This document shows, piece by piece, positions 9,935 to 31,957 of a DNA stretch of 32,611 nucleotides (its first letter is position 1; each line of letters begins with the position of its first letter). A program made the position numbers and the translations under genes. Below the pieces are notes generated by a model. It was given only the letters and a program-made list of their open reading frames with translations. It made no database searches and was not told the DNA's origin. Source of the stretch: Gemmatimonadota bacterium (GTDB lineage Bacteria; Gemmatimonadota; Gemmatimonadetes; Gemmatimonadales; GWC2-71-9); assembly GCA_041485045.1 (NCBI GenBank), contig JBGPIW010000001.1:1-32611 (forward strand), in the 5' to 3' direction.

Positions 9935-10071
9935 ATGATCCTCAGAAGTGGAGGCGGGCGGTCATGGTCTCCAATGTAGACGACTGGCTGGTGGTGCGCT
10001 GCTCCACTCGTTTCCCTCGTCATATAGGTTCCTCCTTCCAGACACTAATCCCTGACACCACCGAGCGCGCG

Positions 10072-10578
10072 ATGTCGCCCGAGGCCCTGGAGCTGGAGCT
10101 CGAACGCCTGCACCCCATGGCCCTCGGCTGGGCAATCGCCTGCTGTGGGGGTGACCGCCATGCGGCGGAGGACGCCATGCAAGCGAGCTACCTGAAAATC
10201 CTGGACGGGCGTGCGCGGTTCGAAGGTCGCGCCACCTTTCGCACCTGGCTATTTGCGGTGGTGCGGCGCACCGCGGCCGAGCAGCGACGCCGGGCCGCGC
10301 TGCGGCGGCTCTTGCCGCTCGCTGTCCTCGGGGCGACACCCGACGGCCGGCCCGACCCGGCGTCGGCGTTGGCAAGTTCGGAGGCGACCAGCCGGCTCGT
10401 GGCGGCGCTGAGCGACCTGTCGCCTCGCCAGCGCGAGGTGCTGCACCTGGTCTTTTACCAGGACCTGACGATCGGCGGGGCGGCGGATGTGATGGGGGTC
10501 TCCCTTGGCACCGCCCGCACCCACTACGAGCGCGGCAAGGCGGCGCTCCGGAAGCTGCTCGAGGAGGATCGGGAATGA
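10072..10578 (+). CDS. ECF-type RNA polymerase sigma-70 family factor
   Basis: ATG at 10072 (MSPEAL...). It has a region-2-like FRTWLFAVVRRTAAEQRRR and a region-4 HTH, LSPRQREVLHLVFYQDLTIGGAADVMGVSLGTARTHYERGKAALRKLL. Confidence 0.85.
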   Translation: MSPEALELELERLHPMALGWAIACCGGDRHAAEDAMQASYLKILDGRARFEGRATFRTWLFAVVRRTAAEQRRRAALRRLLPLAVLGATPDGRPDPASALASSEATSRLVAALSDLSPRQREVLHLVFYQDLTIGGAADVMGVSLGTARTHYERGKAALRKLLEEDRE

Positions 10579-10916
10579 CCGAGCGCGATGATCACGATCT
10601 GCACGACCGGTTCCAGGAGCTGCGTCGCGAAGACCTGGAGCACGCGACACCGTTCATGACGATGCTCGCGACCGCCCGGGCGCGGCGGACCGTACCACCA
10701 CGCCGCGGCGCCCTCAGGCTTGCGCCCGCGGTCGTCGCAGCCGTTGCTCTGTTCTTCCTCTTGAGCCGTCGGCATCGGGACGGGGTGCCGATCGACCTCG
10801 CGACCGTACGCTGGCAGGCGCCCACCGATTTCCTGCTCCAGCTCCCGGGCGAGGAGCTGCTGCGCACCGTACCAGAGTTCCTCACTCCACACGACCTTGA
10901 CCGGAGGATTCCATGA
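10575..10916 (+). CDS. Putative single-pass membrane anti-sigma factor
   Basis: Its start overlaps the sigma-factor stop (ATGA at 10575-10578). It contains one hydrophobic span (LRLAPAVVAAVALFFLL). The position immediately after an ECF sigma is typical for a cognate anti-sigma. No recognisable ZAS motif is present. Confidence 0.5.
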   Translation: MTERDDHDLHDRFQELRREDLEHATPFMTMLATARARRTVPPRRGALRLAPAVVAAVALFFLLSRRHRDGVPIDLATVRWQAPTDFLLQLPGEELLRTVPEFLTPHDLDRRIP

Positions 10917-11359
10917 AACTGCTTCGTATCGCTCTCGTCCCAGCCCTGGCCCTGGCCTTCGTCGCCACGGCCGGAGCGCAGCAGCCGACCCAGCCCCCGC
11001 AGCCGCCCGACGACCCGCTGGCGCGCGTGCTCTTCCCCCCGGAGCTCGTGATGCAGCACCAACAGGACATCGCGCTCCGTCCCGAGCAGCGCGCCACCAT
11101 CACGAAGGCGATCCAGGACTTCCAGGCGAAGGTGGTGGACCTGCAGTGGCGTATGCAGGAACAGTCGCAACGGCTTGTCGCCTTGCTCCAGCGGCCGGCG
11201 GTCGATCAGGCCGCGGCGCTGGCGCAGGTGGACGAGGTACTGGGAGTGGAGCGCGAGGTGAAGCGCGCGCACCTCGGGCTCCTGATCCTGATCAAGAACA
11301 CGCTGACGGCGGAGCAGCAGGCGCAGCTTACCGCGGCACGGGGGGCGGCGCTGCGGTGA
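10913..11359 (+). CDS. Periplasmic Spy/CpxP-family (LTXXQ-motif) protein
   Basis: Its start overlaps the previous stop (ATGA). The signal peptide is MKLLRIALVPALALAFVATAGA|QQ. The body is helical and Q/A-rich, with an LTAEQQAQL (LTXXQ) motif. Confidence 0.6.
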   Translation: MKLLRIALVPALALAFVATAGAQQPTQPPQPPDDPLARVLFPPELVMQHQQDIALRPEQRATITKAIQDFQAKVVDLQWRMQEQSQRLVALLQRPAVDQAAALAQVDEVLGVEREVKRAHLGLLILIKNTLTAEQQAQLTAARGAALR

Positions 11360-11372: not shown

Positions 11373-11855
11373 TTACCGCCGCAGCCGCCGGATCTCCTCC
11401 AGGACCTCGATGTCCGCCGCGTCCTGGAGGCGACCGGTGCGCTTCGACGCGATCAGATCGTCGAGGCCGACGAGCGGAATCGGCACGCCCTCCACGTCCA
11501 CGACCTCCCCGCGGGGCGCCGCCTGCTCGTACTTGACCTGCCAGGCGACCGTGAAGACATCCACCGCGGGATCGTCGCCGATCACGGTGACCGGCCGCTT
11601 CAGGATCTCCGCCGCGGCCCATTCGCGCGCGAAGCCGTAGCCGACGCGCGCGAGCCCCTGAAGCACCCGCTCGGCGTTCGCTTCGGTCCGCTCGATCAGG
11701 ATGTCCACGTCTTCCGTCGCCCGCGCATAGCCGTGCAGGATGCACGCCACTCCACCGATCACGAGATACTTCGCTTCGGATCGGTTGAGCGCGGCACACA
11801 CTTGAGCTGCGATCGTCCGAGGGTCTACCCCCCGGCGCGGTTCGCCTTCTTCCAC
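11373..11855 (-). CDS. Nucleotidyltransferase-fold protein (putative toxin-like partner of the upstream RHH protein)
   Basis: The block KYLVIGGVACILHGYARATEDVDILI is the G[GS]..hG..R.T.D[IV]D signature of minimal NTase-fold proteins. C-terminally it has IPLVGLDDLIASKRTGRLQDAADIEVL. The GTG start at 11855 overlaps the RHH gene by 31 nt. An alternative GTG lies at 11801. Confidence 0.55.
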   Translation of the reverse strand: MEEGEPRRGVDPRTIAAQVCAALNRSEAKYLVIGGVACILHGYARATEDVDILIERTEANAERVLQGLARVGYGFAREWAAAEILKRPVTVIGDDPAVDVFTVAWQVKYEQAAPRGEVVDVEGVPIPLVGLDDLIASKRTGRLQDAADIEVLEEIRRLRR

Positions 11856-12205
11856 TCGTAGAAGTCCTCGTAGGAGTCGAATCCGATGACCTGGTGCCGC
11901 GGGCCACGCCCGCGGCGCCGCTGGCGCGCCAGGCGTGCCAGCTCCTCGGCCCGGCGCAACCGCTCTGCCGGCGAGCGGGCGAGATCGGTCGCCAGGTGCC
12001 GCCGGCGCGCCTCCGCCACTTCCGCGATCGCGTACACGGGCGCGTCGGCTTCCCGCACCTGTGCCGCGACTAATGGGGGGCCCTGGTACGCCCGCAACGC
12101 CTCGACGATCACCCAGCTGCGCGAGCGGTCGAGCTCCCGGGCCCGCCGGTCGGCACTCTGGAGGACGTCCCGGGGCAGCGTGATGGAAATTCGCTCGAAT
12201 GACAT
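11825..12205 (-). CDS. Ribbon-helix-helix (CopG/MetJ-type) DNA-binding protein, antitoxin-like
   Basis: The N-terminus ISITLPRDVLQSADRRARELDRSRSWVIVEALRAY is a canonical RHH (beta strand, helix, helix). ATG at 12205-12203, stop TAG at 11827-11825. Confidence 0.65.
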   Translation of the reverse strand: MSFERISITLPRDVLQSADRRARELDRSRSWVIVEALRAYQGPPLVAAQVREADAPVYAIAEVAEARRRHLATDLARSPAERLRRAEELARLARQRRRGRGPRHQVIGFDSYEDFYEWKKANRAGG

Positions 12206-12269: not shown

Positions 12270-12728
12270 TCACCGCACGGGCGCCACCGTGAGCTTTTTC
12301 AGCTCTTTCAAGAGGCGCCGCTGCGCCGTCGCGTCCTTCGCGGCAATGAAGATGGTGTCGTCCCCCGCGATGGTGCCGACCACGTCCCCCCACGCCATAC
12401 GATCGAGCGCCAGGCCCACCGCGCTCGCCTCGCCGGGCGGGGTGTGCAGCACGACGAGGGAGTCGCCCGCGGTCTCGATCCCGATGACGTCCTCGGCGAC
12501 GCGGCGCAGGTCGGGGTCAGGGGAATGCGCCGCCACCGACGGCTGCCGCTGGTAGGCGCCCCCCGACTTCACGAGGCGCAGTGCCTTGATGTCGCGGCTC
12601 ACCGACGACTGGGTGACGTCCCACCCCTCGGCCGCGAGCGCTTCGGCCAGCTCCTCCTGGGTGCGGATCGCTCGTGTGCTGATCAGCTCGAGGATCTTGA
12701 GGAGGCGCTTGCGGCGCTCGGCGCTCAC
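12270..12728 (-). CDS. argR: Arginine repressor ArgR
   Basis: It has a winged-helix N-domain (TQEELAEALAAEGWDVTQSSVSRDIKAL) and a C-terminal oligomerisation/arginine-binding block (VVGTIAGDDTIFIA). The GTG start at 12728 overlaps the argH stop (GTGA). Confidence 0.85.
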   Translation of the reverse strand: MSAERRKRLLKILELISTRAIRTQEELAEALAAEGWDVTQSSVSRDIKALRLVKSGGAYQRQPSVAAHSPDPDLRRVAEDVIGIETAGDSLVVLHTPPGEASAVGLALDRMAWGDVVGTIAGDDTIFIAAKDATAQRRLLKELKKLTVAPVR

Positions 12729-14110
12729 GGGGCGAAGACCTCGGGATCGAAGCCCGCCAACCGCTCGAGCGCGGCCGCGTAGCGGCGGCGCGCCTTGGTC
12801 CCCCACCGCCGCCGCGCGGCGAGACGCGCCCGCACGGGACCGAGGTCGAGGTTGCCGAGGCCGCCGGGACTCTTGCGACGCGCCAGCGGATCGGGCGCGG
12901 GGAACCGCTCGCCGCGTGTGACGGCAGCCGCCACGGCCCGATACGCGGCGCGGAACGGCTCACCTGCCTCCGTCCGGCGCAGCACCTCGTCGGTCGCGAG
13001 AGGGCCACCGGCGAGCAGCGCGGCTCCGCGCGCGCGATCGACATCGAGCTGCGGCACGACGGCGGCCAGCATCGCGAGCATCTCGCGGGTGCGATCGAGA
13101 CCGCGCAGCAACGGCTCTTTCAAGAGCTGGAAGTCGCGGTGATAGCCGCTGCCGAGCTTCGATTTGAGCGACAGGACCGCGACGAGGTCGGTGTCGAGCG
13201 CCGCGGCGCGGCCCCGGGTCAGCTCGAAGACGTCGGGATTGCGCTTGTGGGGCATCAGGCTCGACCCGGTGGCGAGCGCGCGCGGCAGGACCAGCAACCC
13301 ATACTCCTCGCCGCTGTACAGCACGGCGTCGGTCGCGAGCTTGCCCGCCTCGTGACCCAGCTCGGCGCACCAGGCGAGCACCGCGGCCTCGAGCTTGCCG
13401 CGGCCGTTCTGCACTGTTGCGACGTTGTGCTCCGGCGCGGCGAAGCCCAGGGCGCGCGAGGCGGCGGCGCGCTTCAACGGCAGCGGCACGCCGTACCCGG
13501 CAGCGCTGCCCAGCGGGCAGCGATCGATTCGCGCCCAGAGCGCGGGCAACGATTCGAGTGTGTCGAGGATGCCCTCGGCGAACGCCGCCGCCCAGAGCCC
13601 CGCGGACGACGGCATCGCGCGGCGCTGATGGGTGTACCCGGGCCACAGGGCAGCGCGATGACGCGCGGCGAATTGCGTGAGCGCTTGCGCCAGTGTCGCT
13701 GCCGAATCGTGGATCTCGAGCAGCGCGGCCTTGAGGTAGAGCCGGAGATCGCAGGCGATCTGGTCGTTGCGCGAGCGGCCGGTGTGGAGCCGTTGCCCGG
13801 CCGCACCCAGGCGACGCGTCAGCCACTCCTCGACGGCGGTGTGGGCGTCCTCCTGCCGGGCGCCGATGCGCAGCTTTCCGTCCTGGGCGGCCCGGAGCCC
13901 CGCCCGCAGACCGGCGCGCAGTGAGCGATGGTCCGAAGGCGAGAGGAGCCCTGACGCGCGCAACCCCTCGACGTGGCCCAGGCTGCCGATCACGTCCCAG
14001 GGGAGCAGCCGCGCATCCCAGTAGCGGTCGTCGCCAACTGTATAGGCGAGCATCTGCGCGTCGGCGCCGTCGCCGGTCTGCGACCAAAGCGTCCCGGGGC
14101 GGCGCTTCAC
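12725..14110 (-). CDS. argH: Argininosuccinate lyase
   Basis: Fumarate-lyase superfamily blocks are present: TGRSRNDQ, GYTHQRRAMP and the signature GSSLMPHKRNPD. The GTG start at 14110 overlaps the upstream stop (GTGA). The track ORF extension to 14221 is rejected. Confidence 0.9.
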   Translation of the reverse strand: MKRRPGTLWSQTGDGADAQMLAYTVGDDRYWDARLLPWDVIGSLGHVEGLRASGLLSPSDHRSLRAGLRAGLRAAQDGKLRIGARQEDAHTAVEEWLTRRLGAAGQRLHTGRSRNDQIACDLRLYLKAALLEIHDSAATLAQALTQFAARHRAALWPGYTHQRRAMPSSAGLWAAAFAEGILDTLESLPALWARIDRCPLGSAAGYGVPLPLKRAAASRALGFAAPEHNVATVQNGRGKLEAAVLAWCAELGHEAGKLATDAVLYSGEEYGLLVLPRALATGSSLMPHKRNPDVFELTRGRAAALDTDLVAVLSLKSKLGSGYHRDFQLLKEPLLRGLDRTREMLAMLAAVVPQLDVDRARGAALLAGGPLATDEVLRRTEAGEPFRAAYRAVAAAVTRGERFPAPDPLARRKSPGGLGNLDLGPVRARLAARRRWGTKARRRYAAALERLAGFDPEVFAP

Positions 14111-15195
14111 GTCAGATACTCCGCGGCGAGCCGCGCGTAGAACCCTCGCGCGGCCGTCACTTCCGACAGGGTCACCCACTCGTCGGGCGCGTGGCTGTTG
14201 CGGCTCGTGCCGGGCCCGCACTTGATGGCGTCGTGGTCCTTCAGGAACACCCAGTCGGAGCAGGTGGGGCTGCCGAAGCAGCGCGCCTCAGGCCGCACCC
14301 GCAGGGCCGCAGCAAGAAGGCGGGAGTTCGCCGGCGTCTCGCACGGAACGAGGCGGTCGGAGGTGACCACGACCTCGCTCTCGAGCGACTGCCGCAGCGC
14401 GTCGGCGATCTCGGTGTGCGACCAGGCCGGCGTGGTGCGCACATCGAGCACGGCGCGCGCCACGGGCGGCGTGACGTTGCGGCCCACCCCAGCCTCGAGC
14501 ATCGTCGGCGTGATCGTGGGGTGACCGAGCACCGGGTGGACGCGCTCACGCGCCACCCCCTCCAGCGCGATCAGGTCGCGCGCCAGTCGCTGCGTCGCGT
14601 TGACGAACCCGCCGCCATTGCCCGCTGCGGCGTCCGCGTACCCGGCGTGCCGCTGGTCGCCGCGCGCGACGAGATCGACCATCATCAGGCCGCGCTGGGC
14701 GACCGCGATATCGAGGTTGGTCGGCTCGCCCACGACGGCGGCGTCGATCGAACCCGCGGACGCGGCCAGCTCGGGCATAGACGTATGGCGCGTTTCCTCG
14801 CCGTAGCCCAGCAACACGAGCAGGCGGCCGCGCGGCGGGCCACCGCGCTGCACCACGTCGTGCGCGGCCGAGAGCATCGCAACCACGGATGCCTTGGCGT
14901 CGCCCGAGCCGCGGCCGTACAGCCTGCCGTCCTCGAACACCGGGGTGAATGGATCGCGCGTCCACCCCTCGCCTGGCGGAACGACGTCCAGGTGGGAGAC
15001 CAGCGCCAGGGTGGGACCGGGAGCCCGGCCCGCGATCTCGACCTTCACGCCACTGGCATCGCGCGTCACGGCCAAGCCCCAGCGGCGCGCGGCATCCTCG
15101 ACCTGCCGCGCCACGGCCTCCTCGCTGCCGCTCACCGACGGCGTGGCGACGAGCTCGGCCAGGAGGGCGATCTCAGTCGGCGAGGTCGGCTTCAA
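14107..15195 (-). CDS. M20-family deacylase (ArgE/DapE-like; acyl-citrulline or acyl-ornithine deacylase)
   Basis: M20 motifs are present: LALVSHLDVVPPGEGWTRDPF and LYGRGSGDAKASV. The only in-frame start is TTG at 15195, which overlaps the argB 3' end by 23 nt. Confidence 0.75.
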   Translation of the reverse strand: MKPTSPTEIALLAELVATPSVSGSEEAVARQVEDAARRWGLAVTRDASGVKVEIAGRAPGPTLALVSHLDVVPPGEGWTRDPFTPVFEDGRLYGRGSGDAKASVVAMLSAAHDVVQRGGPPRGRLLVLLGYGEETRHTSMPELAASAGSIDAAVVGEPTNLDIAVAQRGLMMVDLVARGDQRHAGYADAAAGNGGGFVNATQRLARDLIALEGVARERVHPVLGHPTITPTMLEAGVGRNVTPPVARAVLDVRTTPAWSHTEIADALRQSLESEVVVTSDRLVPCETPANSRLLAAALRVRPEARCFGSPTCSDWVFLKDHDAIKCGPGTSRNSHAPDEWVTLSEVTAARGFYARLAAEYLT

Positions 15196-16111
15196 GCTCC
15201 GACGTCTCCTTACGGCCGACGATCATGGTGCCGCACCCGACGCCGGTGAACACCTCGAGCAACAGCGAGTCGGGCGCGCGTCCATCGATGATGTGGGTGC
15301 GCTCCACTCCCTTGGTGGCGGCGCGGATGCACGCCTCGACCTTGGGGCGCATGCCGCCGATCAGGGCGCCGCTGGCCATGAGCTCGGCGAGATCGCCAGG
15401 GTCGGCGAAAGTGACGAGCGTAGCCGCGTCGTGCCGGTCGCGCAGCACCCCGGGCGCGCCGGTGAGGAAAATCAGCTTCTGGGCGTGGAGCGCCACGGCG
15501 AGCGCTTCGGCCACGGTATCGGCGTTGACGTTGTACACGCCGCCGTCCACGTCGCCCGCGAGGCTCGCCACCACCGGGACGAAGCGGGCGTCGAGCAATG
15601 TCTTCAGGAGGTGCGGGTCGACGCGGTCGATGTCGCCGACGTGGCCGTAGTCGATCACGCGCGTTTCCCCATCGTCATCTGTCACGGTGACGGGAGGACG
15701 GCGGTGTGCGGTGAGCAGCTCGCCGTCCACGCCGGAGATCCCCACCGCCTGGACGCGGTGCCCGCGCAGCGCCGACAGCACGGCGACGTTGAGCTGCCCC
15801 CCGTACACCATCGTCACGATCTCCAACGTCTTGTCGTCGGTGACGCGGCGTCCCGCCACCAGCTCGGGCTCGATGCCGAGGCGACGGGAGAGCAGGGTCG
15901 CCTGCGCACCGCCGCCGTGCACCACGACGATGCGGATGCCGAGCGAGGCGAGCAAAGCGAGCTGCGCCGCCACGCCATCCAGCACGTCTGCGTCGTCCAG
16001 CACCTCGCCGCCGAGCTTCACCACGAACACCCGGTCGCGATAGGCGCGCACGTAGCGCAACGCGCCCTTCAACCCCACGATCCCCCTCGCCGGCTCGATC
16101 GCCGCGGTCAT
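15173..16111 (-). CDS. argB: Acetylglutamate kinase (kinase domain only, 312 aa, no fused GNAT/NAGS domain)
   Basis: Amino-acid-kinase blocks are present: VVKLGGEVL, IVVVHGGG and YNVNADTVAEALA. ATG at 16111 overlaps the argF' stop (ATGA). The track ORF upstream extension to 16600 is rejected. Confidence 0.9.
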   Translation of the reverse strand: MTAAIEPARGIVGLKGALRYVRAYRDRVFVVKLGGEVLDDADVLDGVAAQLALLASLGIRIVVVHGGGAQATLLSRRLGIEPELVAGRRVTDDKTLEIVTMVYGGQLNVAVLSALRGHRVQAVGISGVDGELLTAHRRPPVTVTDDDGETRVIDYGHVGDIDRVDPHLLKTLLDARFVPVVASLAGDVDGGVYNVNADTVAEALAVALHAQKLIFLTGAPGVLRDRHDAATLVTFADPGDLAELMASGALIGGMRPKVEACIRAATKGVERTHIIDGRAPDSLLLEVFTGVGCGTMIVGRKETSELEADLAD

Positions 16112-17121
16112 GTCCGTCCTCCCATGAGTTCCAGCAGCAACGCCCGCTGGGCGTGCAGGCGGTTCTCCGCCTCGTCCACCACCACCGAATTCGGCCCGTC
16201 GAGCACCGCGTCGTCGATCTCGACGTTGCGGCGCACCGGCAGGCAGTGCATCACGATCCCGCGTCCGCCGCGGGTGGCGCGCAGCCGCTGTTCGGTCAGC
16301 CGCCACGCCCGGAACGGGGTGCGCAGCGCCCGCTCTTCCTCTGGGCGCCCGAACGCCTCGAGCGAGCCCCAGCTTTTCACATAGACGGCATCGGCGCCGG
16401 CGAGCCCCGCGTCCAGGTCGTCGCACAGCCGGGCCGAGCCTCCCGCTTCGCGGGCCAGTCGCTCGATGAGCGCCTGATCCTCGGGGTCGAGGTCGAATCC
16501 GGGCGGGCGGGTGAGCACCACCTCCATGCCGAGCTGCGCCGCGGCGAGCGCCGCGCTCGCGGGCACGGCGGTCGGGAGCGCCTTGGGGTGCCAGGCCCAC
16601 ACCAGCGCGAACCTCTTGCCGCGCGGATCACCGAGCCGCTCGCGCAGCGTCATCGCGTCGGCCAGCGCCTGACACGGGTGGCGGCGCGCCGACTCGAGGT
16701 TGATTACCGGCTTGTCCGAGAAGCGCGCGAAGTCTTTGATGAGGCGATCCTCGCGCTCGGCGGTCCAGTCGGTGCCCTTGGGGAAGGCGCGCACGGCGAG
16801 CGCGTCGGCATAGCGCGCCAGCACGCGGGCCGCCTCAGTGACGTGCTCGACCGTCGCACCGTCCATCACGGCGCCGGGCTCGGTCTCGAGCGCCCAGCTC
16901 CCCTTGCCGGGCTCGAGCACGAGAGCGTGGCCGCCGTGCAGGAACATGGCCGTTTCCATGCTGCTGCGGGTGCGGAGGCTCGGGTCGAGAAACACCATCG
17001 CCAGCACTTTGCGCTCGAGCCCGCCCGTGATCTCGCCGCGCTTCACGCGCGCCGCGAGCGCCAGCAGGCCATCCACCGCCTCCGGGCTCCAGTCCTCGAG
17101 GGCGAGGAAGTCGCGCGACAC
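16108..17121 (-). CDS. argF: N-acyl-L-ornithine carbamoyltransferase (ArgF'; AOTCase/SOTCase type, not a classical OTCase)
   Basis: It has SLRTRSS in place of the OTCase STRTR, together with HPCQALAD, HCLPVRRNVEIDDAVLD and DEAENRLHAQ. By recall it is collinear with Xanthomonas N-acetylornithine carbamoyltransferase. The GTG start at 17121 shares 1 nt with the argD TAG. Confidence 0.85.
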   Translation of the reverse strand: MSRDFLALEDWSPEAVDGLLALAARVKRGEITGGLERKVLAMVFLDPSLRTRSSMETAMFLHGGHALVLEPGKGSWALETEPGAVMDGATVEHVTEAARVLARYADALAVRAFPKGTDWTAEREDRLIKDFARFSDKPVINLESARRHPCQALADAMTLRERLGDPRGKRFALVWAWHPKALPTAVPASAALAAAQLGMEVVLTRPPGFDLDPEDQALIERLAREAGGSARLCDDLDAGLAGADAVYVKSWGSLEAFGRPEEERALRTPFRAWRLTEQRLRATRGGRGIVMHCLPVRRNVEIDDAVLDGPNSVVVDEAENRLHAQRALLLELMGGRT

Positions 17122-18287
17122 TAGCGCAGCACCTCGGCGAGGCCGGCGAGCAGCCGGTCGGCTTCGGCTGTGCTGAGGGTGAGCGGTGGCATGAGGCGCA
17201 GCACCGTGGGGTCACTGGCGGTACCGGTGAGGATCCGCCGCGCGAAGAGGGCCTGTTGGATGTCGGCCGCCGGCCGGCCGAGGTGGAGTCCCAGGAGCAG
17301 GCCGCGACCGCTGACCCGCGAGACGCCGAGTGCCCGCGCGCCGCGCGTGAGCCGTTCTCCGATGGCAATCGCGTTCGCGATCAGCCCTTCGCCGTCGATC
17401 ACCTCGAGGGTGGCAAGCGCGGCCGCACAGACGACGGGGCCGCCACCGAAGGTGCTGCCCAGATCGCCCGTTTTGACGCCGTCGGCGAGTTTCGGACCCG
17501 CGACCACCGCGCCGATCGGCAACCCCGAGGCGAGCCCTTTGGCGAGCGTCAACGCGTCGGGCACGACCCCGTACGACTCGGCGGCGCTGAACGCGCCGCA
17601 GCGGCCCACGCCGCACTGGATCTCGTCGAAGATCAGGGCGGCGCCGCTGCGGTCGCAGGCGGCGCGCGCGGCGCGCAGGAACTCGGGGGCACAGTCCCGC
17701 GCGCCGGCGAGGCCCTGCACGGGCTCGACGATCACCGCGGCCGTGGTGTCGTCTACGGCGTGCTGCAACGCGGCGGCGTCGTCGAACGGCACCAGACGCG
17801 CGAGCGGCATCCCGGCGCCCCGCGCCCACGCCTGGTACTTCTCGCCGTCGGTGCACGCGAGCGTGGCCACGGTGCGGCCGTGCCAGCCGCCCGCGACGGC
17901 CACGACGCCGGATCGTCCCGTGGCGCGGCGCGCCAAATGCAGCGCGTTTTCGTTCGCTTCCGCTCCGGAATTGCAGAGGAAGACGCGGGCACCAGACAGC
18001 GGGCAGCGTGCCGCCAGCTCGGATGCCAGCCGCTCCCGCAGCTCCAGCGGCACCGCCGCTGAGTAGAAGAGGAGCGTTTCCGCCTGTCGCGCGATCGCCG
18101 CCACGACGTGCGGGTGACAATGTCCGGTGGATGCCACGGCATGACCGCCGTAGGCGTCGAGCCACTCGCGGCCGTCCGCGTCGATAAGCCAGGCGCCGCG
18201 GCCGCTCACGGGGCGCACCGGCATCTGTGCATAGACCGGGAGCAGGGCGTCCGCCGCTCGCTGCGGTGATGTCGTCGCCGTCAGCAT
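17121..18287 (-). CDS. argD: Acyl-ornithine aminotransferase (class III PLP aminotransferase)
   Basis: Class III aminotransferase blocks are present: LDAYGGHAVASTGHCHP, FLCNSGAEANE, LIFDEIQCGVGRCG and PDALTLAKGLASG (PLP lysine). ATG at 18287 overlaps the argC stop. Confidence 0.85.
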   Translation of the reverse strand: MLTATTSPQRAADALLPVYAQMPVRPVSGRGAWLIDADGREWLDAYGGHAVASTGHCHPHVVAAIARQAETLLFYSAAVPLELRERLASELAARCPLSGARVFLCNSGAEANENALHLARRATGRSGVVAVAGGWHGRTVATLACTDGEKYQAWARGAGMPLARLVPFDDAAALQHAVDDTTAAVIVEPVQGLAGARDCAPEFLRAARAACDRSGAALIFDEIQCGVGRCGAFSAAESYGVVPDALTLAKGLASGLPIGAVVAGPKLADGVKTGDLGSTFGGGPVVCAAALATLEVIDGEGLIANAIAIGERLTRGARALGVSRVSGRGLLLGLHLGRPAADIQQALFARRILTGTASDPTVLRLMPPLTLSTAEADRLLAGLAEVLR

Positions 18288-19306
18288 GGGTACATCGCCG
18301 ACAGGCGCAGCCCCGCGGTCTCGTCGAGTCCCAACGCCAGATTCATCGCCTGCACCGCCTGGCCGGCGGCGCCCTTTACCAGGTTGTCGATCGCCACGCT
18401 GACCTGCAGCTCCGTGCCGTCCTCGCTCGCGGCCGCGTGAATCAGCGCGTCATTCGTGCCGACGGCGTGGGTCAATTCGGGCGGTCGGGCGGTCAGGCGG
18501 ACGAACGGGCGCCCCGCATAGGTCGAGCGGTACGAGGCCGCCACATCGCCGCCCTGTTCGAGGCGGGCGTGCAGCGTGAGGTAGATGCCGCGCACGAACG
18601 GGCCCGCGTGGGCCACGAGTCGCGGCACGGTGCCGTTCCCGCCGCCCCCCGTCCAGCGCCGCCACTGCTCGGTGATCTCGGCGTCGTGGCGGTGGCTCAG
18701 CACGCCGTAGGCGAACACGTTGTGGGCGCGCGCCGGGTGATGCGTCGTGGGCTTGGGACCGACGCCGGCGCCCGAGCTGCCGGTGATCGCGTACAGGGCC
18801 GGCGGGGCCGCGAGCGCGACGCGGGCGATCGGATACAGCGCTAGCGCGGCCGCGGTGGCGAAGCAGCCGGGGACCGCGATCGCGTGGGCGCCCTGCAGCG
18901 ACTCTCCGCACACATCCGCCAGCCCATAGACGAAGCGGGACCGGAGGGCGGGCGATGCGTGGGCGCCGTAATAGCGTTCATGCAGGGCAGGGTCGCGTAC
19001 GCGGAAGTCGCCAGCCAGATCCACCACGAGGCGAGGCTCGGCGGCGAAGATCTCCCCGGCCAAGCGGGAGGACTCGCCGTGCTCGAGCGCAAGAAAAACC
19101 GCATCGCACCCGCGCGCCGCCTCGCCTGGGGCGGTGTCCACGAACGCGGCCTCGCTCGAGGCGAGCGCCGGATGCACGTCGGCCAGCGGGCGGCCCGCCT
19201 GGCTGCGGCTCACGGCCACGCATTTCGTCACTTCGGGGTGCTGCGCCAGGAGCCGCAGCAGCTCACCGCCGGCGTAGCCGCCGGCGCCGATGACCGTGAC
19301 CTTCAC
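18281..19306 (-). CDS. argC: N-acyl-gamma-glutamyl-phosphate reductase
   Basis: The N-terminus VKVTVIGAGGYAGGELLRLL is a Rossmann motif, and the active-site Cys block is AIAVPGCFATAA. The GTG start at 19306 overlaps the stop of gene X (GTGA). Confidence 0.9.
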   Translation of the reverse strand: MKVTVIGAGGYAGGELLRLLAQHPEVTKCVAVSRSQAGRPLADVHPALASSEAAFVDTAPGEAARGCDAVFLALEHGESSRLAGEIFAAEPRLVVDLAGDFRVRDPALHERYYGAHASPALRSRFVYGLADVCGESLQGAHAIAVPGCFATAAALALYPIARVALAAPPALYAITGSSGAGVGPKPTTHHPARAHNVFAYGVLSHRHDAEITEQWRRWTGGGGNGTVPRLVAHAGPFVRGIYLTLHARLEQGGDVAASYRSTYAGRPFVRLTARPPELTHAVGTNDALIHAAASEDGTELQVSVAIDNLVKGAAGQAVQAMNLALGLDETAGLRLSAMYPC

Positions 19307-20400
19307 GCCGCCGCGGGGGCGGCAGACCCTGCCGCCCGTTCGGGGGAGACCGCCTCGCGCACCACCCCGACGAGCGCTGGCGCCTCGCGCAGCGCGTTGT
19401 GGGCGGGGAGGCCCAGGGCGGTGCGCACGTACTCGCGGCCGACCTCGTTGTCGGTGGCGGGTCCGCTGATCACCGTGATCGGCAGCCGGTATTCCCGGCG
19501 GTACAGCTCGGCCACGCCCCAGCAGCCGACCGGGTCGGGCGCGCACAGCACATGGGCGCCGGCCACCGCCATCAACTCCGGGTCGCGCAGGATATCCTGC
19601 ACACCGTAGTCGCCCAGGATGCCGTCGCCCAGCTCCGCCACGATCACGTCGGGGCGGCCGCTCGGGAGGGCGGCGAGCCGGTTGAGGATTGCCTTGGCGA
19701 GTGGGACCGTCATCCCCGCGTGCGTGCTGGCCGCGCCGGCGTCGTTGAAGGTGAGGGCGTCGGCCGCGCCTGCGTCGAGCATCGACAGGGCGTCGCGCAT
19801 CAGCGACACGCCGGTGAGCTTCGCCGCGGCCACGCGCATGCCGCTGCGCGACAGCCCGCGCACCAGCTCCGTCGCGGCCACCGTCTTCCCGGCGTTCATG
19901 CAGGTGCCGGCCACGTACACCACCGGCACGATGCAGTCGAGCCGGTCGGCGGGGGGAATCGCGTGGTCGCGGATGTGGGCCGGCCGTCCGACCCGGTCAC
20001 CCAGCTCGGGGAAGGCGAGCACGGCGCCCAGCACCTCCGCCGTGAATGGTGCACCGATCTCAGGGTTCGCCGACGTGCACGTTCCCAGGATGCCGCCCAG
20101 GTTCAGCACGTGAATCACATCGCCCACGGCGATCTGGTCGGGCACGACGCCCGCGTAGCCGCGCAGCGCGCGCCGCGCGCCCAGGGTGCCGGCGAGCACG
20201 TCGCCGGCGCGCAGCGAGAGCATGCGGCCGGTCCTGTCCTCGATCGTGTTGTAGGTGCTCTTGTCCTCGAGAATGCGCACCGCGAGCACGTAGCCTTCCT
20301 CGGCCACGATGGCATCGCCCACGATCACTTCACGGGGGAGCGCGGCATTCTTGGTGCTGCTCGAGATGCGGTCCAGCCGGATCCGCGTGGTCACGACCAT
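19303..20400 (-). CDS. Uncharacterised 365-aa protein with a Walker-A-like loop, embedded in the arginine operon ('gene X')
   Basis: ATG at 20400 is preceded by AGGAG 5 nt upstream and lies 11 nt after the argG stop. The protein runs MVVTTRIRLD...VVYVAGTCMNAGKTVAATELVRGL...KLTGVS...VAELGDGILGDYG. GC3 is high. The track ORF 19303..21726 upstream of 20400 is a shadow of argG. Confidence 0.7.
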   Translation of the reverse strand: MVVTTRIRLDRISSSTKNAALPREVIVGDAIVAEEGYVLAVRILEDKSTYNTIEDRTGRMLSLRAGDVLAGTLGARRALRGYAGVVPDQIAVGDVIHVLNLGGILGTCTSANPEIGAPFTAEVLGAVLAFPELGDRVGRPAHIRDHAIPPADRLDCIVPVVYVAGTCMNAGKTVAATELVRGLSRSGMRVAAAKLTGVSLMRDALSMLDAGAADALTFNDAGAASTHAGMTVPLAKAILNRLAALPSGRPDVIVAELGDGILGDYGVQDILRDPELMAVAGAHVLCAPDPVGCWGVAELYRREYRLPITVISGPATDNEVGREYVRTALGLPAHNALREAPALVGVVREAVSPERAAGSAAPAAA

Positions 20401-20411
20401 GGTGGCTCCTG

Positions 20412-21605
20412 CTAGCGGGCGGCCGCGCGCGCGGCCAAGAGGGACGGGATGGCGGCGACGCGGGCGAACGCTCGCGCCTCGTCCCCGGTCCACAGCCGGG
20501 GCTCCTCGCCGTAGGTGGCGACGGCGGGATCCATCATGGAGAACGGACTGCGGACGCCGGTCACCTGAAACCGTCCCGGCGCCAGGCGGACGCGCGTCTC
20601 GCCCGTGACGCGCTGCTGCGAGCTGGCGATCAGCGCCTCGATGTCGCGCAGCGCCGGATCGAAGTACTGGCCTTCGTGCAGCCGGTCGCCGTAAAAGCGG
20701 CCGAGCTGATCCTTCCAGAACGTCTGCCAGCGCGTGAGCACCAACTTCTCCAGCTCGCGGTGCGCGTGGATCAGCACCAGCGCGGCGCCGGCCTCGAAGC
20801 CGATGCGGCCCTTGATGCCGAGCGCGGTTTCGCCGGTGTGCGTGTGGCGCCCGATCCCGTAACGCTGCGTGAGGGCGCCGAGGCGCTCGACCAAGGCGGG
20901 ACCGGCGAGCGGCGCGCCGTCCAGGGTCGTGGGGAGGCCCAGATCCCAGCCGATCACGATCTCGGCCGGCGCGGGAGCGTCGGACGGCGGGTCGAGCAGC
21001 TCGGCCGGCGGACCGGTCCAGGGGTCGTGGGTCCAGCCGCCGCCCCAGGTCGTGCCCCAGAGCCCGGCGTTGACGGAGTAGGCGCCGGCCTGCGGCGGGA
21101 CGGGGAGCCCGCGCGCTTCGAGCCAGGCGATCGCCTGCGGACGCGTGAGGGTGGCGTCGCGGATGGGGGTCAGGATGCGCAGATCGGGCGCGAGCACCCG
21201 GAGCGCTACGTCGAACCGGACCTGGTCGTTGCCGGCGCCGGTCGAGCCGTGGGCCACGGCGGCCGCGCCGACCTCGCGCGCGACGGCGACGAGGGAGATC
21301 GCCTGCTGGGTCCGCTCGGCGGCGACCGACAGGGGATAGACCTCGCCGCGCAGCACGTTCCCCTGGATGAGGAAGCGGACGAAGCGGTCGAACACCGGCG
21401 CTCGGCCGTCCACGGCGTGGTGGCGGACCGCGCCCACGGCCAGGGCCTGCGCGCGAATGCGTGCGCGGTCGGCGTCCGAGGCCCCGCCGGTATCGACCCA
21501 GACGGTGTGCACCGTCCAGCCGTCGGCGGCGAGCTTGGCGGCGCAGTAGGACGTGTCGAGGCCGCCCGAGAAGGCGAGGACCAGCGGTCCGCTGTCGTTC
21601 TGCAT
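20412..21605 (-). CDS. argG: Argininosuccinate synthase
   Basis: The N-type ATP-pyrophosphatase motif LAFSGGLDTS is present, plus blocks AHGSTGAGNDQVRF and GRIGFEAG. ATG at 21605-21603. Confidence 0.9.
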   Translation of the reverse strand: MQNDSGPLVLAFSGGLDTSYCAAKLAADGWTVHTVWVDTGGASDADRARIRAQALAVGAVRHHAVDGRAPVFDRFVRFLIQGNVLRGEVYPLSVAAERTQQAISLVAVAREVGAAAVAHGSTGAGNDQVRFDVALRVLAPDLRILTPIRDATLTRPQAIAWLEARGLPVPPQAGAYSVNAGLWGTTWGGGWTHDPWTGPPAELLDPPSDAPAPAEIVIGWDLGLPTTLDGAPLAGPALVERLGALTQRYGIGRHTHTGETALGIKGRIGFEAGAALVLIHAHRELEKLVLTRWQTFWKDQLGRFYGDRLHEGQYFDPALRDIEALIASSQQRVTGETRVRLAPGRFQVTGVRSPFSMMDPAVATYGEEPRLWTGDEARAFARVAAIPSLLAARAAAR

Positions 21606-25951: not shown

Positions 25952-26433
25952 TCGCGGAGTCTCGCCTACGGATATCCGCCTGAGAACTCCAAGGAGGCGT
26001 GACCAAAGGGTACGCGGCCGACCCTGCCGCTTCCCCCTCTCCGCCACGAACCTTGTGGAGTTCGCAGGCCCGTCGGGCAAACATCAGGGCAAAACCCCTT
26101 GAAAGTCCCGTGCCATGGTAGGTTAGGCGTGCGCCGCGGACCTTCAATCCGCGGTCCGCCACGAGCCGAAATTCAGGCGGCAATGCGCATACCCAAGAAG
26201 TCATCGTCTTCGTTTATCCCGAGGAGCGCTCGCACCTACGAATGACCCTTGAGCCTAGGGAGTCTTTGAGCACAAATGGCGCGCTGATCTCACTGGTTCT
26301 AGGCGTGAGTTGTTCGCTCACTTTTGGGGGGAATTAGCCGCCACGCGCCTAGCCACGGGTGGCTCTTCCGCACACACTTGGAAAATCCTGTCGGGTGATC
26401 TTCTCTTCAGGTACACTCGGGTGTTCGGGATAG

Positions 26434-26466
26434 GCAAAAGAAGGGGGCGGACTAGCCCGCCCCCTT
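26434..26466 (-). terminator. Rho-independent terminator downstream of the ABM-fold gene
   Basis: The 10-bp GC stem AAGGGGGCGG / CCGCCCCCTT (26441-26450 / 26457-26466) has a 6-nt loop. On the minus strand it is followed by CTTTTG. Confidence 0.55.
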
Positions 26467-26531
26467 CTCCGAACCGACCGGTCGGCCTAGAACAGACCGG
26501 AGCTACGAGCGGCCGAACAGACCGGTCAGCC

Positions 26532-26846
26532 TTAGTTCCTTGCGGCGATCTTGTGGAAGGTCGAGTTCGAAACCTCGTAGGCCTCAACCTTCGGCGTTCC
26601 CTCAACCACCTTCGTCAGGCTCTTCAGCACCTGCGGATAGATGTCGCGGCTATAGGTGTCCGCGTTCTCTTTGCTATCCCACAGACTGATCGCTACCGCT
26701 TCGGCGCGGTCCGGGGCGACAAACGAAATCTCGTCCCTGAATCCGTTCTGTTTCCGAAGCAGGGGCAGGACGTCCTTCTCCAGCGTCTGGGTAAACTCAC
26801 CGGCCGTGTTGGCCTTCAGATGCAGGGACACATTGCGTGCGTACAT
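26532..26846 (-). CDS. ABM-fold (antibiotic-biosynthesis-monooxygenase-like, dimeric alpha+beta barrel) protein
   Basis: 104-aa ORF with AAGGAGG 6 nt upstream of the ATG. The pattern MYARNVSLHLK...FVAPDRAEAVAISLWDSKENADTY is typical of ABM/Dabb small proteins. Confidence 0.6.
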   Translation of the reverse strand: MYARNVSLHLKANTAGEFTQTLEKDVLPLLRKQNGFRDEISFVAPDRAEAVAISLWDSKENADTYSRDIYPQVLKSLTKVVEGTPKVEAYEVSNSTFHKIAARN

Positions 26847-26924
26847 AGCGACCTCCTTGGTGGTGGCTCAACTCAACTATGGACTTCAGTTAACTACTGT
26901 AGTTGACACTTCCTCAACTTCTTC

Positions 26925-26955
26925 AACATATGCTAGTGTACTGTACTTGTCAAGT
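26925..26955 (-). promoter_or_regulatory. Strong sigma-70-type promoter of the ABM gene (ACTTGACAAGT ... TATGTT)
   Basis: On the minus strand the -35 TTGACA lies at 26953-26948, followed by a 17-nt spacer and the -10 TATGTT at 26930-25. The -35 is embedded in the palindrome ACTTGACAAGT (26955-26945). From the start of CTTGACA through the end of the -10 hexamer, 24 of 30 nt are identical to the groES promoter. Confidence 0.55.
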
Positions 26956-27238
26956 ATATCCGGCAAACTGCCGTATCGTTCTCGGGCGATTAACTTTCTA
27001 TGGTTAAAGAGCAAAGTCGCCCCTATCAGGAATCGTAAGGTAGACGAGGCTACCGTGCCCTGCGCCGCGTTCGCAGCCGGCTGGTCATCCTCCGCGCCGA
27101 GGCGCTGGTCCGATGAGCAACATCTATGGCTGGCCCGACGAGCTGGTGGCGACCATCAGGCGATAGGGGTGGGGATGCACCTTTCACCGCTGCGCAGCCT
27201 ACTCGCTGTCCGTTAGACGGCGCCTCAACCTCCCATCC

Positions 27239-29415: not shown

Positions 29416-30084
29416 CTACGCCGCGTAGGTCAGGGCGTCCTGAACCTTTCGGACGCCCGGGGTGGCCCAGGCCGCCCGCATCACCTCTTCGCGCTCTGCC
29501 CATGAGTGGATCGTGCCACGGAGCGTGACGCCGCCACCTTCCGCAGTGTCCACCGTGATTCGCTGGGCATCAGTCTCCGCACTCCGCGTGAGCGCTGCCT
29601 TGATGTGTTGCTTCACATCGATCGATCTCCCCGAGGAGGGAGTGACGGCGATCTGATTGGTGACTCCTTTGACCCCGACGAGGTAGCGAACGGCCCCATC
29701 CGCGGCCGCACGTTGATACTGCCAATCCACTGTGCCTTCGAGGGTGATCCATCCGTCGCGAACCGAGGTCTTGATAGTGCGTTCGGGCACCTCGACGTCC
29801 CAGCGCAGCGCGTCGGCCACAGCCTTCGCGAGGTCTGCGTCGCTGCGGGCGTGCAGGTCGGGCAGGGACACATCCATGTGTTCCACGACAACGTTGACGC
29901 CGCTCACGCGTTCCGCGTCATGGTAGGCCGCGAGCTTCGCGGCATACGTCGGCGCGGATCCACTCAGCGTGACCACCCCGCCTTTCGCCGAGACGGCGAT
30001 TGCCTTCACGTCCACTCTCGGATCGAACGCCAATTCGTCCCTGACGTCCCGCTCCAGGTCCTTATCGCTTTTGGGCTGCCACAT
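29416..30084 (-). CDS. BON-domain (OsmY-like) protein with three BON repeats
   Basis: ATG at 30084 has AAGGAG 7 nt upstream. Three repeats of the BON pattern are present (D.eL...V...L..d..v....i.V....G.VtL.G.V): IAVSAKGGVVTLSGSAP, IKTSVRDGWITLEGTVD and ITVDTAEGGGVTLRGTIHS. Confidence 0.8.
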   Translation of the reverse strand: MWQPKSDKDLERDVRDELAFDPRVDVKAIAVSAKGGVVTLSGSAPTYAAKLAAYHDAERVSGVNVVVEHMDVSLPDLHARSDADLAKAVADALRWDVEVPERTIKTSVRDGWITLEGTVDWQYQRAAADGAVRYLVGVKGVTNQIAVTPSSGRSIDVKQHIKAALTRSAETDAQRITVDTAEGGGVTLRGTIHSWAEREEVMRAAWATPGVRKVQDALTYAA

Positions 30085-30557
30085 ACCCCAGCTCCTTTCC
30101 GCAGGCCTGCACACCGAGATCCTCATGAATCGGAACCCTCGCGTGCTCCTAACAATTAGAACTCAGCGGGGATGAAAAAAACAGTAACCCGGGATGAGAG
30201 ATCGGCGGTCGCATAAGATGCAAGAAACCGGGTGTAGTTGGGCCGACAACTGTCGTGCGGCAAACAAGCAGGAAAAATCGCCTAAGATCTGGCCCCAGAC
30301 TGGCAACTCGCGGTGGATATCCCATAACCCGTCAATCCAGCACCGGACGTCCGATTAATGCTCCGCGACCCGGGAGACGATGCTCTACTCGCCTGAGCAG
30401 ATCTCTATGGTGACGCTGTCCCCTTCGTAGAACCTCCTCATCGCCGCCGATCAAGAGCCAGCGGGCAACGATCACCGGGCCCAGGAACCCGAGCCGTGCG
30501 CCGGTCCATGTCGTCCTTGCCTCCTGCAGCGAGAGAGCCTCGCGCAACCTCACGAGC

Positions 30558-31463
30558 CTACGGCGTGCTGAAATGCAGCGGGTCCCGCAAGCTCTGCAGC
30601 TCCCGGTAGTAGTAGAGGGCCGTGGGCCGCTTGTGCCTGAACTTCAGCTGCTTGAGGAGCTCGACTTCCTCCGGGGTCGCGGTGCCGCTGAGGGAAGGAT
30701 TCTGAAGGAATTCCTGGAGCCCCGGCTCTTCGCTGACGGGCTGTTCGGTTTCCCGCTCGACAAACTCGAATCGCTTCGCCTGCCCTGGGACGACGCTGTG
30801 GTTCAAGACAACCTCCAGACCGAACGTCGCGAGGTCAATGTCCCAGGATTCAATCAGCGGATCTAAGAACGAGACGCAGTTCTCAGCGGACACGTGAAAG
30901 ATGTCCGTATCGAGGAACTCGAGCACGATGACCCGCATCTCCTCATAGCTGCGACCGCTGAGTTGGGCCACCATGCGGAGCCAGTAGTCATTCCCGAGTT
31001 CGTCTTTCGCCACGCGCTTGACCACGTTCAGCAGCGTACGGGTGACGAGGCGTTCGAGCTCGCCGAAGGGCTGCTTTTCAAAAATCGCGCGGATGTGTTT
31101 TTCCTTCTCACGATTGGACTTGCGCAGGATCAACTCACGAAATTCGTGATACAGGGGTACGGGTGCCTCCCCCAATTCCCGCTTTAATTCTTCCTTGCGC
31201 TGGAGATCCGCCAGTTTGGCCAGTTCCCCGCTCGGAAGCTTCAAGAACTTGTCCATGCGGCCATAGATGTCGGTGCGGCTAGGCGCGGGAGGCGCCTTTT
31301 TCCGCGTCAGTAACTGAGAGATGTAGGAGTCGGTCACGCGGGCGGCGCGGGCGAGATCCTGCTGCTCCAACCCCAATTCCTCCAGCCGGTGCCGGATCAC
31401 CAATGGGACGTCCACGGGGTTCCTCCTGGGCCGAGTTGACTCCTTGACCATACCGTTAATCAT
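30558..31463 (-). CDS. XRE-family helix-turn-helix regulator with an uncharacterised ~220-aa C-terminal domain
   Basis: The N-terminal HTH is IRHRLEELGLEQQDLARAARVTDSYISQLLTRKK. The remainder matches no family I recognise. The gene is visibly AT-richer than the neighbourhood. It is encoded divergently from groES. Confidence 0.7.
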   Translation of the reverse strand: MINGMVKESTRPRRNPVDVPLVIRHRLEELGLEQQDLARAARVTDSYISQLLTRKKAPPAPSRTDIYGRMDKFLKLPSGELAKLADLQRKEELKRELGEAPVPLYHEFRELILRKSNREKEKHIRAIFEKQPFGELERLVTRTLLNVVKRVAKDELGNDYWLRMVAQLSGRSYEEMRVIVLEFLDTDIFHVSAENCVSFLDPLIESWDIDLATFGLEVVLNHSVVPGQAKRFEFVERETEQPVSEEPGLQEFLQNPSLSGTATPEEVELLKQLKFRHKRPTALYYYRELQSLRDPLHFSTP

Positions 31464-31487
31464 TTAACCGTACTATGTTAATCATTT
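31455..31487. repeat. Two exact 11-bp direct repeats GTTAATCATTT spaced 22 bp apart at the XRE gene start
   Basis: Read directly from the sequence: gttaatcattt at 31455-31465 covers the ATG, and the second copy at 31477-31487 overlaps the putative -10. The first copy forms the inverted repeat GTTAA-tcat-TTAAC with the following bases. Confidence 0.7.
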
Positions 31488-31503: not shown

Positions 31504-31515
31504 GGTGAATGGTTC

Positions 31516-31578: not shown

Positions 31579-31632
31579 GATCCGCCGTTAAGTCACTTGT
31601 GCGGTTTTCCTTCAGTGTGGAGGCGGAGCATC

Positions 31633-31941: not shown

Positions 31942-31957
31942 GCGGAGAGAGGAATAG

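Follow-up and report, generated by a model that had tools for sequence, protein, structure and literature searches.

The N-acylation of glutamate is the committed step of arginine biosynthesis, and the step most often missing when the pathway is reconstructed from genomes. It is catalyzed by GNAT-type synthases (ArgA, S-NAGS and the Bacteroides protein BT3761) and by ArgJ. Here we describe an uncharacterized gene, which we call X, that lies within an arginine operon of a bacterium from the Gemmatimonadales (phylum Gemmatimonadota) and may encode an unrelated enzyme for the same step. The operon was analyzed in its surroundings of 32,611 nucleotides (contig JBGPIW010000001.1 of assembly GCA_041485045.1, positions 1 to 32,611), hereafter the window; the genome has a G+C content of about 72%.

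Two described systems resemble this arrangement. In Bacteroides, the N-succinylglutamate synthase step has been assigned to the GNAT protein BT3761, the gene of which is located next to argG and argC in an operon of the succinyl type; with such a precedent, non-orthologous displacement at the same place in the operon is plausible. The second is the Steroidobacter protein ACG33_RS14135. For this protein and its homologues, the GapMind 2026 preprint (bioRxiv 10.1101/2024.10.14.618325) predicted, without experiment, a role as N-succinylglutamate synthase. According to the preprint, the homologues are “virtually always” found in arg operons and never co-occur with ArgA homologues, and the Steroidobacter host is prototrophic, without ArgA and with no recognizable ArgE. 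In 90% of the ArgF’ proteins encoded beside these homologues, position 92 is A, P, S or V, and in the rest it is I, T or Q. The same source reports a weak Foldseek match between ACG33_RS14135 and DgcN (7XRJ; E 1.4e-7, root-mean-square deviation (rmsd) 5.6 Å), described as a D-glutamate N-acetyltransferase.

X compares closely with ACG33_RS14135. Both are unassigned hypothetical proteins found nearly always in arg operons (argG, argC, argD, argF’, argB, argH, argR, and sometimes an M20 argE). Both adjoin an ArgF’ in which Glu92 is replaced by V, A, I or Q, including the rare Gln, and the same role is proposed for both. They differ in that 7XRJ is matched by ACG33_RS14135 and is not among the top 50 Foldseek matches of the X model, and in that an M20 deacylase is encoded in our cluster and reportedly not in Steroidobacter. 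We did not find any Steroidobacter-labelled protein among the matches of X, neither in protein searches nor in cluster look-ups. Nevertheless, the two proteins very probably belong to the same family. X is in this sense a further member of a family with an already published role prediction, and the idea of an entry-step role is not new. What our analysis adds is that the prediction is confirmed in a further phylum and that the question of mechanism becomes sharper; the residual novelty concerns the chemistry of the donor and an N-terminal domain without solved relatives.

The arginine operon and its extra gene

Genes in the window were identified by Pfam and NCBIfam profile searches of the products of its open reading frames (ORF). 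Nine tightly coupled genes were found on the minus strand, at 12270-21605, in the order argG-X-argC-argD-argF’-argB-M20-argH-argR:

20412-21605, minus strand: argG (argininosuccinate synthase), first gene of the operon; Pfam PF00764 and PF20979
20406-20410, minus strand: AGGAG Shine-Dalgarno sequence of X, inside the argG-X spacer; read directly from the sequence
19303-20400, minus strand: X, uncharacterized two-domain protein of 365 aa; ATG start, TGA stop
18281-19306, minus strand: argC; Pfam, GTG start
17121-18287, minus strand: argD (N-acylornithine aminotransferase); Pfam Aminotran_3 and NCBIfam argD family
16108-17121, minus strand: argF’ (N-acylornithine carbamoyltransferase); NF003384, 413 bits against a cut-off of 288
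15173-16111, minus strand: argB (N-acylglutamate kinase), 312 aa, kinase domain only; AA_kinase at residues 28-276, TIGR00761
14107-15195, minus strand: M20 deacylase of the ArgE/DapE family, presumed N-acylcitrulline hydrolase; Peptidase_M20 and M20_dimer, TIGR01910
12725-14110, minus strand: argH (argininosuccinate lyase); Pfam Lyase_1
12270-12728, minus strand (ORF extends to 12806): argR (arginine repressor); Arg_repressor and Arg_repressor_C

Our reading of the junctions agreed with a preliminary description of this DNA, made from the sequence alone, which had reported a packed nine-gene operon with GTGA, ATGA, 1-nt and 7-nt overlaps. The stop codon of X overlaps the GTG start of argC by 4 nt (GTGA), as had been claimed, argC and argD overlap by 7 nt, argD and argF’ by 1 nt, and argF’ and argB by 4 nt (ATGA). 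The Shine-Dalgarno sequence of X is also present, but its reported position, 11 nt after the argG stop, has to be corrected: it is found inside the spacer between argG and X, which is 11 nt long, and 5 nt before the ATG of X. Judging from the sequence, the most likely start of argR is the GTG at 12728 (giving a product of 152 aa) rather than a start at 12806; this start forms a GTGA overlap with the argH stop (12725-12728), and removes an apparent overlap of 82 nt.

The operon encodes all steps of arginine synthesis but the N-acylation of glutamate, and X, translationally coupled to argC, is its sole extra gene. The profile searches identified no GNAT and no ArgJ among the gene products of the window; the earlier claim that both are missing thus holds at the scale of the window, not of the whole genome. 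ArgB was correctly described as a kinase-only protein, since it has the AA_kinase domain and no GNAT. Two other assignments of X within the pathway were considered and discarded: an alternative ArgB or ArgE, because both are already encoded in the operon, and a BioD-like, ureido-forming replacement of ArgF’, because ArgF’ is present in nearly all clusters.

The ArgF’ of the window provides a hint about the acyl group. It matches the structures of the Xanthomonas N-acetylornithine transcarbamylase with 332 bits, the best match in PDB being 3L06. In the alignment column of residue 92, 3L06 has Val, 3M5C has Glu and 3L02 has Ala; the window protein has Val91 (codon 16849-16851) at the position of the Xanthomonas Glu92. 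The change of E92 to A, P, S or V shifts specificity to N-succinylornithine, as the work of Shi et al. 2007 is summarized in the GapMind 2026 preprint. Since Val91 occupies this position, the sequence predicts an ArgF’ specific for N-succinylornithine. The equivalent residue in the ArgF’ encoded beside X was V in 94 of 96 loci, A in one and Q in one, and never Glu; in seven clusters from other lineages it was V, I, A or Q. Every ArgF’ beside X has the KSW motif of acylornithine transcarbamylases. One of the clusters from other lineages (L169, ArgF’ at 14735-15883) has Gln at the equivalent of Glu92, the same rare variant noted in the GapMind 2026 preprint.

X is a widespread and conserved gene. 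A protein search returned 2409 homologues at E<=1e-3, and among clusters at 50% identity X matched 1442 representatives, of which 910 had E<=1e-10. Among the closest loci listed, X was intact in at least about 160 from Gemmatimonadota, with 70-94% identity (the genome and metagenome scans gave the 80 closest loci each, all Gemmatimonadota-like). Lineage labels on the matches included Gemmatimonadales, Thermoanaerobaculia, Pyrinomonadaceae, Planctomycetota, Deltaproteobacteria/Pseudomonadota, Spirochaetes, Elusimicrobiota, Chloroflexi, Candidatus Gottesmanbacteria, and bins of Woese- and Aenigmatarchaeota. Nearly all matches with a source name are annotated as “hypothetical protein”, with one Joint Genome Institute (JGI) record named “dethiobiotin synthetase”, and no Pfam or NCBIfam family matched X above its cut-off, the highest scores being those of DUF1611_C (18.8 bits) and MobB (18.5 bits). 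This conservation, together with a confident predicted fold (see below), rules out that X is a spurious ORF of high-G+C DNA.

We then searched the Arg proteins of the window with tblastn in 169 fetched loci, which are mostly from Gemmatimonadota and hence not independent. The gene directly downstream of X was argC in all 131 loci with enough sequence, and the gene directly upstream was argG in all but 4 of the loci with enough upstream sequence. The complete nine-gene order was found in 41 loci. For other lineages, we compared clusters whose X homologues are 30-55% identical to X:

L084, Thermoanaerobaculia: argG-X-argC-argD-argF’-argB-M20-argH
L166, lineage not assigned (its X homologue clusters with a Planctomycetales-labelled one): argG-X-argC-argD-argF’-argB-M20-argH
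L172, bin labelled “Woesearchaeota”: argG-X-argC-argD-argF’-argB-M20-argH
L173, Spirochaetes: argG-X-argC-argD-argF’-argB-argH
L081, no lineage label: X-argC-argD-argB-carAB
L169, no lineage label: X-argC-argD-argB-argF’-argH-carAB
L082, Planctomycetales: X-argC
L167, no lineage label: argG-X-argC
L168, no lineage label: X-argC

None of these nine clusters contained ArgJ or a GNAT embedded in the operon. Adjacency of X and argC thus extends to bins of Acidobacteriota, Planctomycetota and Spirochaetota. The clusters L081, L169 and L173, otherwise complete, have no M20 gene.

We propose that X forms N-acylglutamate and provides the entry step of the pathway, with a probability that we put at about 0.65. 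Four points speak for it: glutamate N-acylation is the only step missing, the coupling of X to argC is tight, the ArgF’ encoded nearby is a succinyl-type enzyme, and the anti-correlation with ArgA published for ACG33_RS14135 points in the same direction. This role, which the preliminary description had also put forward, is unproven but the best available explanation for the extra gene of the operon. If X does form N-acylglutamate, there is good reason to expect the acyl group to be succinyl. X would then stand beside the GNAT enzymes and ArgJ as a third type of N-acylglutamate synthase; these catalyze the reaction predicted for X with an unrelated fold, and their domains were not detected in X by Pfam and NCBIfam. 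Arginine prototrophy could then be called correctly for several abundant, mostly uncultured phyla of soil and sediment.

Domains and fold class of X

An AlphaFold2 model of X, built on an alignment of 52 sequences, had a mean predicted local distance difference test (pLDDT) score of 92.3 and a predicted template modelling (pTM) score of 0.90. It consists of two domains, matching the layout proposed earlier, with a beta-rich N-terminal part and a C-terminal part carrying a Walker-A-like loop; the peptides then quoted for X (VVYVAGTCMNAGKTVAATEL, KLTGVS and VAELGDGILGDYG) are all present in the protein. Its features are the following:

19966-20400, minus strand: N-terminal all-beta domain, aa 1-145; AlphaFold2 secondary structure and alignments
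19345-19929, minus strand: C-terminal SIMIBI-type alpha/beta P-loop domain, about aa 158-352; Foldseek, PDB profile search and hhalign
19882-19908, minus strand: Walker A loop GTCMNAGKT, aa 165-173, with BioD-type spacing G-x5-GKT; aligned to G8-T16 of BioD
19810-19821, minus strand: KLTG motif, aa 194-197, with invariant K194; aligned to the catalytic Lys37 of BioD
19621-19635, minus strand: ELGDG motif, aa 256-260, at the end of a beta-strand; E256 aligned to the Mg-site Glu115 of BioD (EGAGG)

The N-terminal domain is presumed to bind substrate. The alignments revealed near-invariant positions along it (S14, G36, E54, G74, R76, G84, P87, G103, G106, G125), and S14, E54, R76 and several glycines are conserved in at least 90% of the homologues of 29-56% identity. 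When modelled alone (pLDDT 90.4), the domain had no significant match in PDB by Foldseek, the best E being 0.14 with template modelling (TM) scores of 0.31 or lower.

The C-terminal half of X belongs to the P-loop domains of the SIMIBI class. The model of X had 157 Foldseek matches in PDB at E<=1e-3, and the top 50 (E 5e-6 to 1e-4) were NG domains of SRP54/FtsY, dethiobiotin synthetases (BioD) and HypB. A PDB sequence search with X alone gave no match; a profile built from 63 diverse homologues identified BioD of M. tuberculosis as the best one (3FGN, E 1.2e-4), followed by FtsY and MobB. The domain has the signature of BioD-like SIMIBI proteins, i.e., a Walker A GxxxxxGK[ST], a conserved Lys following strand 2 (K37 in BioD) and an acidic residue where the Walker B-like strand ends (E115 in BioD). 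The curated families BioD/AAA_26 (15.2 bits), CbiA (14.7 bits) and MobB (15.8 bits) all scored below their cut-offs on X. The SIMIBI-type fold had been suggested in the preliminary description, and is well borne out by the profile search, Foldseek and hhalign.

The presence of HypB among the structural matches raises the possibility that X is not an enzyme, but an accessory NTPase (nucleoside triphosphatase): perhaps a metallochaperone of the G3E/HypB kind that supplies the M20 deacylase, or else a factor for assembly or regulation of the pathway. HypB (2hf8) has one of the best TM scores normalized by target (0.60, rmsd 4.6 Å), X has weak Pfam matches to MobB and CobW-like families, and M20 enzymes require metal ions. 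However, some clusters have X and no M20, the alignments of the family show no conserved NKxD or Cys/His metal-binding motif, and the large, conserved, dedicated N-terminal domain together with the BioD-type Lys194 suggest an enzyme that binds a substrate. An accessory role would also leave the entry step unexplained, and we regard it as very improbable.

Within the SIMIBI class, the preliminary description had pointed to DUF1611 and DgcN, and had suggested comparing X with them by Foldseek and profiles. This suggestion was right on the fold class; at the level of the family it failed. The DUF1611_C profile (PF07755) scored 18.8 bits on X against a cut-off of 25, and covered only residues 158-201, that is, 44 residues around the Walker A loop. 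Across 63 homologues, weak Pfam matches of similar strength were distributed among CbiA (38), MobB (35) and DUF1611_C (34). DUF1611_N, a Rossmann-like domain, had no match in any of these 63 family members at E<=0.1. The PDB search with the family profile returned no DUF1611 chain at E<=10. Given the PF07755 score, the absence of DUF1611_N, and 7XRJ falling outside the top 50 Foldseek matches, we discarded X as a member of the DgcN/DUF1611 family. Plasmid proteins annotated as “DUF1611 domain-containing”, found by tblastn with X, do not provide a bridge to DgcN either: they are X-like paralogues with 16-21 bits for PF07755 and no DUF1611 match in PDB.

X and DgcN do share a P-loop, SIMIBI-like C-terminal domain and, if our prediction holds, the N-acylation of the alpha-amino group of glutamate. 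They differ in the N-terminal domain, all-beta in X and without relatives in PDB. The substrate of X would be the L- and not the D-isomer, with succinyl, not acetyl, as the probable acyl group. The predicted role of X in an arg operon is anabolic, whereas DgcN is catabolic and acts alongside the racemase DgcA; we identified no gene for a racemase or an epimerase in the window. To our knowledge, DgcN is the only characterized P-loop glutamate N-acyltransferase, and it reportedly uses acetyl-CoA (acetyl-coenzyme A).

BioD-type residues and the acyl donor

The BioD/CobQ/CTP-synthase branch is similar to X in the G-x5-GKT spacing of Walker A, the equivalents of K194 and E256, and the overall alpha/beta fold. 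The similarity is remote: X has an additional beta domain of 145 residues and belongs to arginine synthesis, BioD to biotin synthesis. An hhalign comparison of the X family with E. coli BioD (sequence checked against 1A82) gave a probability of 71.5% and E 3.6e-5, with 25% identity across 101 columns. The residues K172, T173, K194 and E256 of X were paired with K15, T16, K37 and E115 of BioD, which in BioD bind Mg-ATP and stabilize the phosphorylated intermediate; T11 of BioD was paired with a conserved Met. Among homologues of 29-56% identity, G171, K172 and K194 are invariant, and T173, D203, E256, G258 and D289 are conserved in at least 90%.

These residues also bear on a different chemistry for the same step, in which X would be a CoA-independent ligase driven by ATP or another NTP (nucleoside triphosphate): as BioD, CobQ and CTP synthase do, X would phosphorylate a carboxylate, turning succinate into succinyl phosphate, which would then be attacked by the alpha-amino group of glutamate to yield N-succinylglutamate, ADP and Pi. 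BioD is the best PDB match of the family profile and is aligned with the family by hhalign, with Foldseek target-normalized TM scores of 0.50-0.54, and the four paired residues are invariant or nearly so in the homologues. In addition, paralogues of X cluster with genes for RimK and ATP-grasp enzymes, which are ATP-dependent amide ligases. On the other side stand the Met in place of Thr11 of BioD, the Asp54 of BioD, whose equivalent (possibly D203) was not placed by hhalign, and the lack of any identified motif in X for recognition of a nucleotide base. Moreover, the sole P-loop enzyme characterized as N-acylating glutamate, DgcN, has been described as an acetyltransferase. We consider such a ligase rather unlikely, though a serious contender.

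We favour instead the synthesis of N-acylglutamate from a CoA thioester; given that X does make N-acylglutamate, the analogy with DgcN tips slightly towards this donor over ATP and free acid. In the mechanism we envisage, X would N-acylate L-glutamate to N-succinyl-L-glutamate as the committed first step, with succinyl-CoA, chosen because of the analogy with DgcN, as the acyl donor. The all-beta N-terminal domain and the BioD-like P-loop domain would form a cleft, where K172 and T173 of the P-loop, K194 and E256 may hold the phosphate-bearing part of the donor, and R76, E54 and S14 of the N-terminal domain are candidate ligands for glutamate or succinate. ArgB, ArgC and ArgD would turn the product into N-succinylornithine, to be carbamoylated by ArgF’ (Val91); the M20 deacylase would then release citrulline, and ArgG and ArgH would complete the pathway under regulation by ArgR. 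X would thus replace, by non-orthologous displacement, the GNAT-type synthases (ArgA, S-NAGS, Bacteroides BT3761) and ArgJ.

Several observations weigh against this proposal. The likeness of X and ACG33_RS14135 is one of description, covering operon context, neighbouring ArgF’ and proposed role. Since X is not a member of DgcN/DUF1611, the analogy with an acyl-CoA transferase extends to the fold class and no further. The set K172, T173, K194 and E256 is the catalytic set of ATP-dependent ligases of the BioD type, and fits phosphoryl transfer better than aminolysis of a thioester. Finally, in the genome of a Candidatus Gottesmanbacteria (GCA_030679255.1, locus L171, 8552-15833) we identified argG, an 80-aa ORF, X, ArgF’ (with Ile92), argH, M20 and a second knotted transcarbamylase of 390 aa. 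Within 10 kb of this cluster we found none of argB, argC and argD, which is odd for an X that acylates glutamate. Either argB, argC and argD are sited elsewhere in this genome, or X is able to act on another amine such as ornithine.

The latter possibility belongs to a broader alternative, that X participates in arginine synthesis with a target other than glutamate, for example by N-acylating ornithine or by an ArgJ-like cycle in which the acyl group of N-acylcitrulline or N-acylornithine is returned to glutamate. An ArgJ-like cycle would cover the missing deacylase in clusters without M20, such as L081, L169 and L173, and also the lack of a recognizable ArgE in Steroidobacter noted in the preprint; the Gottesmanbacteria cluster fits as well. 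Nevertheless, the tightest and universal link of X is with argC, which acts on a glutamate-derived intermediate, and not with ArgF’ or M20. The window already has an M20 deacylase, the P-loop fold has no precedent for transacylation, and the argB, argC and argD of the Gottesmanbacteria genome, from the Candidate Phyla Radiation (CPR), may lie elsewhere. We therefore think this alternative improbable, and retain the N-acylation of glutamate as the proposed reaction of X. The choice of donor between a thioester and ATP with a free acid, and an N-terminal domain without solved relatives, make the X family a good target for enzymology and structural biology.

Paralogues of X and other features of the window

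The archaeal paralogues of X (about 30% identical) are located outside arg operons. In the loci L177 and L178 (8984-14316), the X-like gene (10001-11029) is preceded by a gene of the AstE/AspA family (succinylglutamate desuccinylase/aspartoacylase), and followed by genes for a RimK-type ATP-grasp ligase, a 270-aa protein and a C39-like protein. The block is flanked by genes for Trk, a Na+/H+ exchanger and a mechanosensitive (MS) channel. The same paralogue core is found in an Aenigmatarchaeota locus (L170, 10001-15260), here with two ATP-grasp genes. Its gene content suggests a module that makes an N-acyl-Asp/Glu peptide, perhaps an osmolyte.

Another X-like protein (WP_252285593.1; 25% identical, tblastn E 3e-23) is encoded by a Priestia megaterium plasmid (NZ_CP085446.1, locus L174, 4736-13424). 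Its neighbours encode a carbamoyltransferase of the ornithine transcarbamylase (OTC) type, two ATP-grasp ligases, a split thiamine-diphosphate (TPP) enzyme, an M20 peptidase, a luciferase-like (LLM) oxidoreductase and a protein of the phosphoenolpyruvate (PEP) mutase family. The cluster resembles one for phosphonate-type biosynthesis that reuses the trio of X, transcarbamylase and M20. Overall, the neighbourhoods of the paralogues are consistent with a chemistry of N-acyl acidic amino acids.

A more far-reaching scenario would be the following: X as a CoA-independent, ATP-dependent succinate:L-glutamate ligase, made of a BioD-like P-loop domain and a beta domain without solved relatives, with paralogues that make other N-acyl acidic amino acids in the archaeal osmolyte-like and the phosphonate-type clusters. 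We regard it as speculative and unlikely. If true, such a ligase would bring a novel chemistry to the committed step of the arginine pathway, and a widespread one, spanning Gemmatimonadota, Acidobacteriota, Planctomycetota, Spirochaetota, Elusimicrobiota and CPR bacteria.

In two plasmids of Rhodobacterales (L175, 7974-10744, and L176, 7887-10525), the X-like gene is labelled “DUF1611 domain-containing protein” in RefSeq, with PF07755 at 16-21 bits, below the cut-off of 25, and is in each case followed by a gene for a long ATP-binding protein of an ABC transporter. The public label probably reflects a family misassignment.

Outside the operon, the window also carries genes for a fucosidase, a sigma factor, an SSF symporter, a GH20 enzyme, and Band 7, BON and GroEL proteins. 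Adjoining argR downstream, at 11373-12205 of the minus strand, is an overlapping pair formed by a CopG-type ribbon-helix-helix gene (11825-12205) and a DUF6036 nucleotidyltransferase-like gene (11373-11855), which could be a toxin-antitoxin-like module. The ORFs at 26310-27216 had no Pfam match. The G+C content falls to 0.57-0.59 at 26001-27000 and at 30001-32000, versus about 0.72 in the arg operon, and these stretches may be foreign or otherwise atypical DNA.

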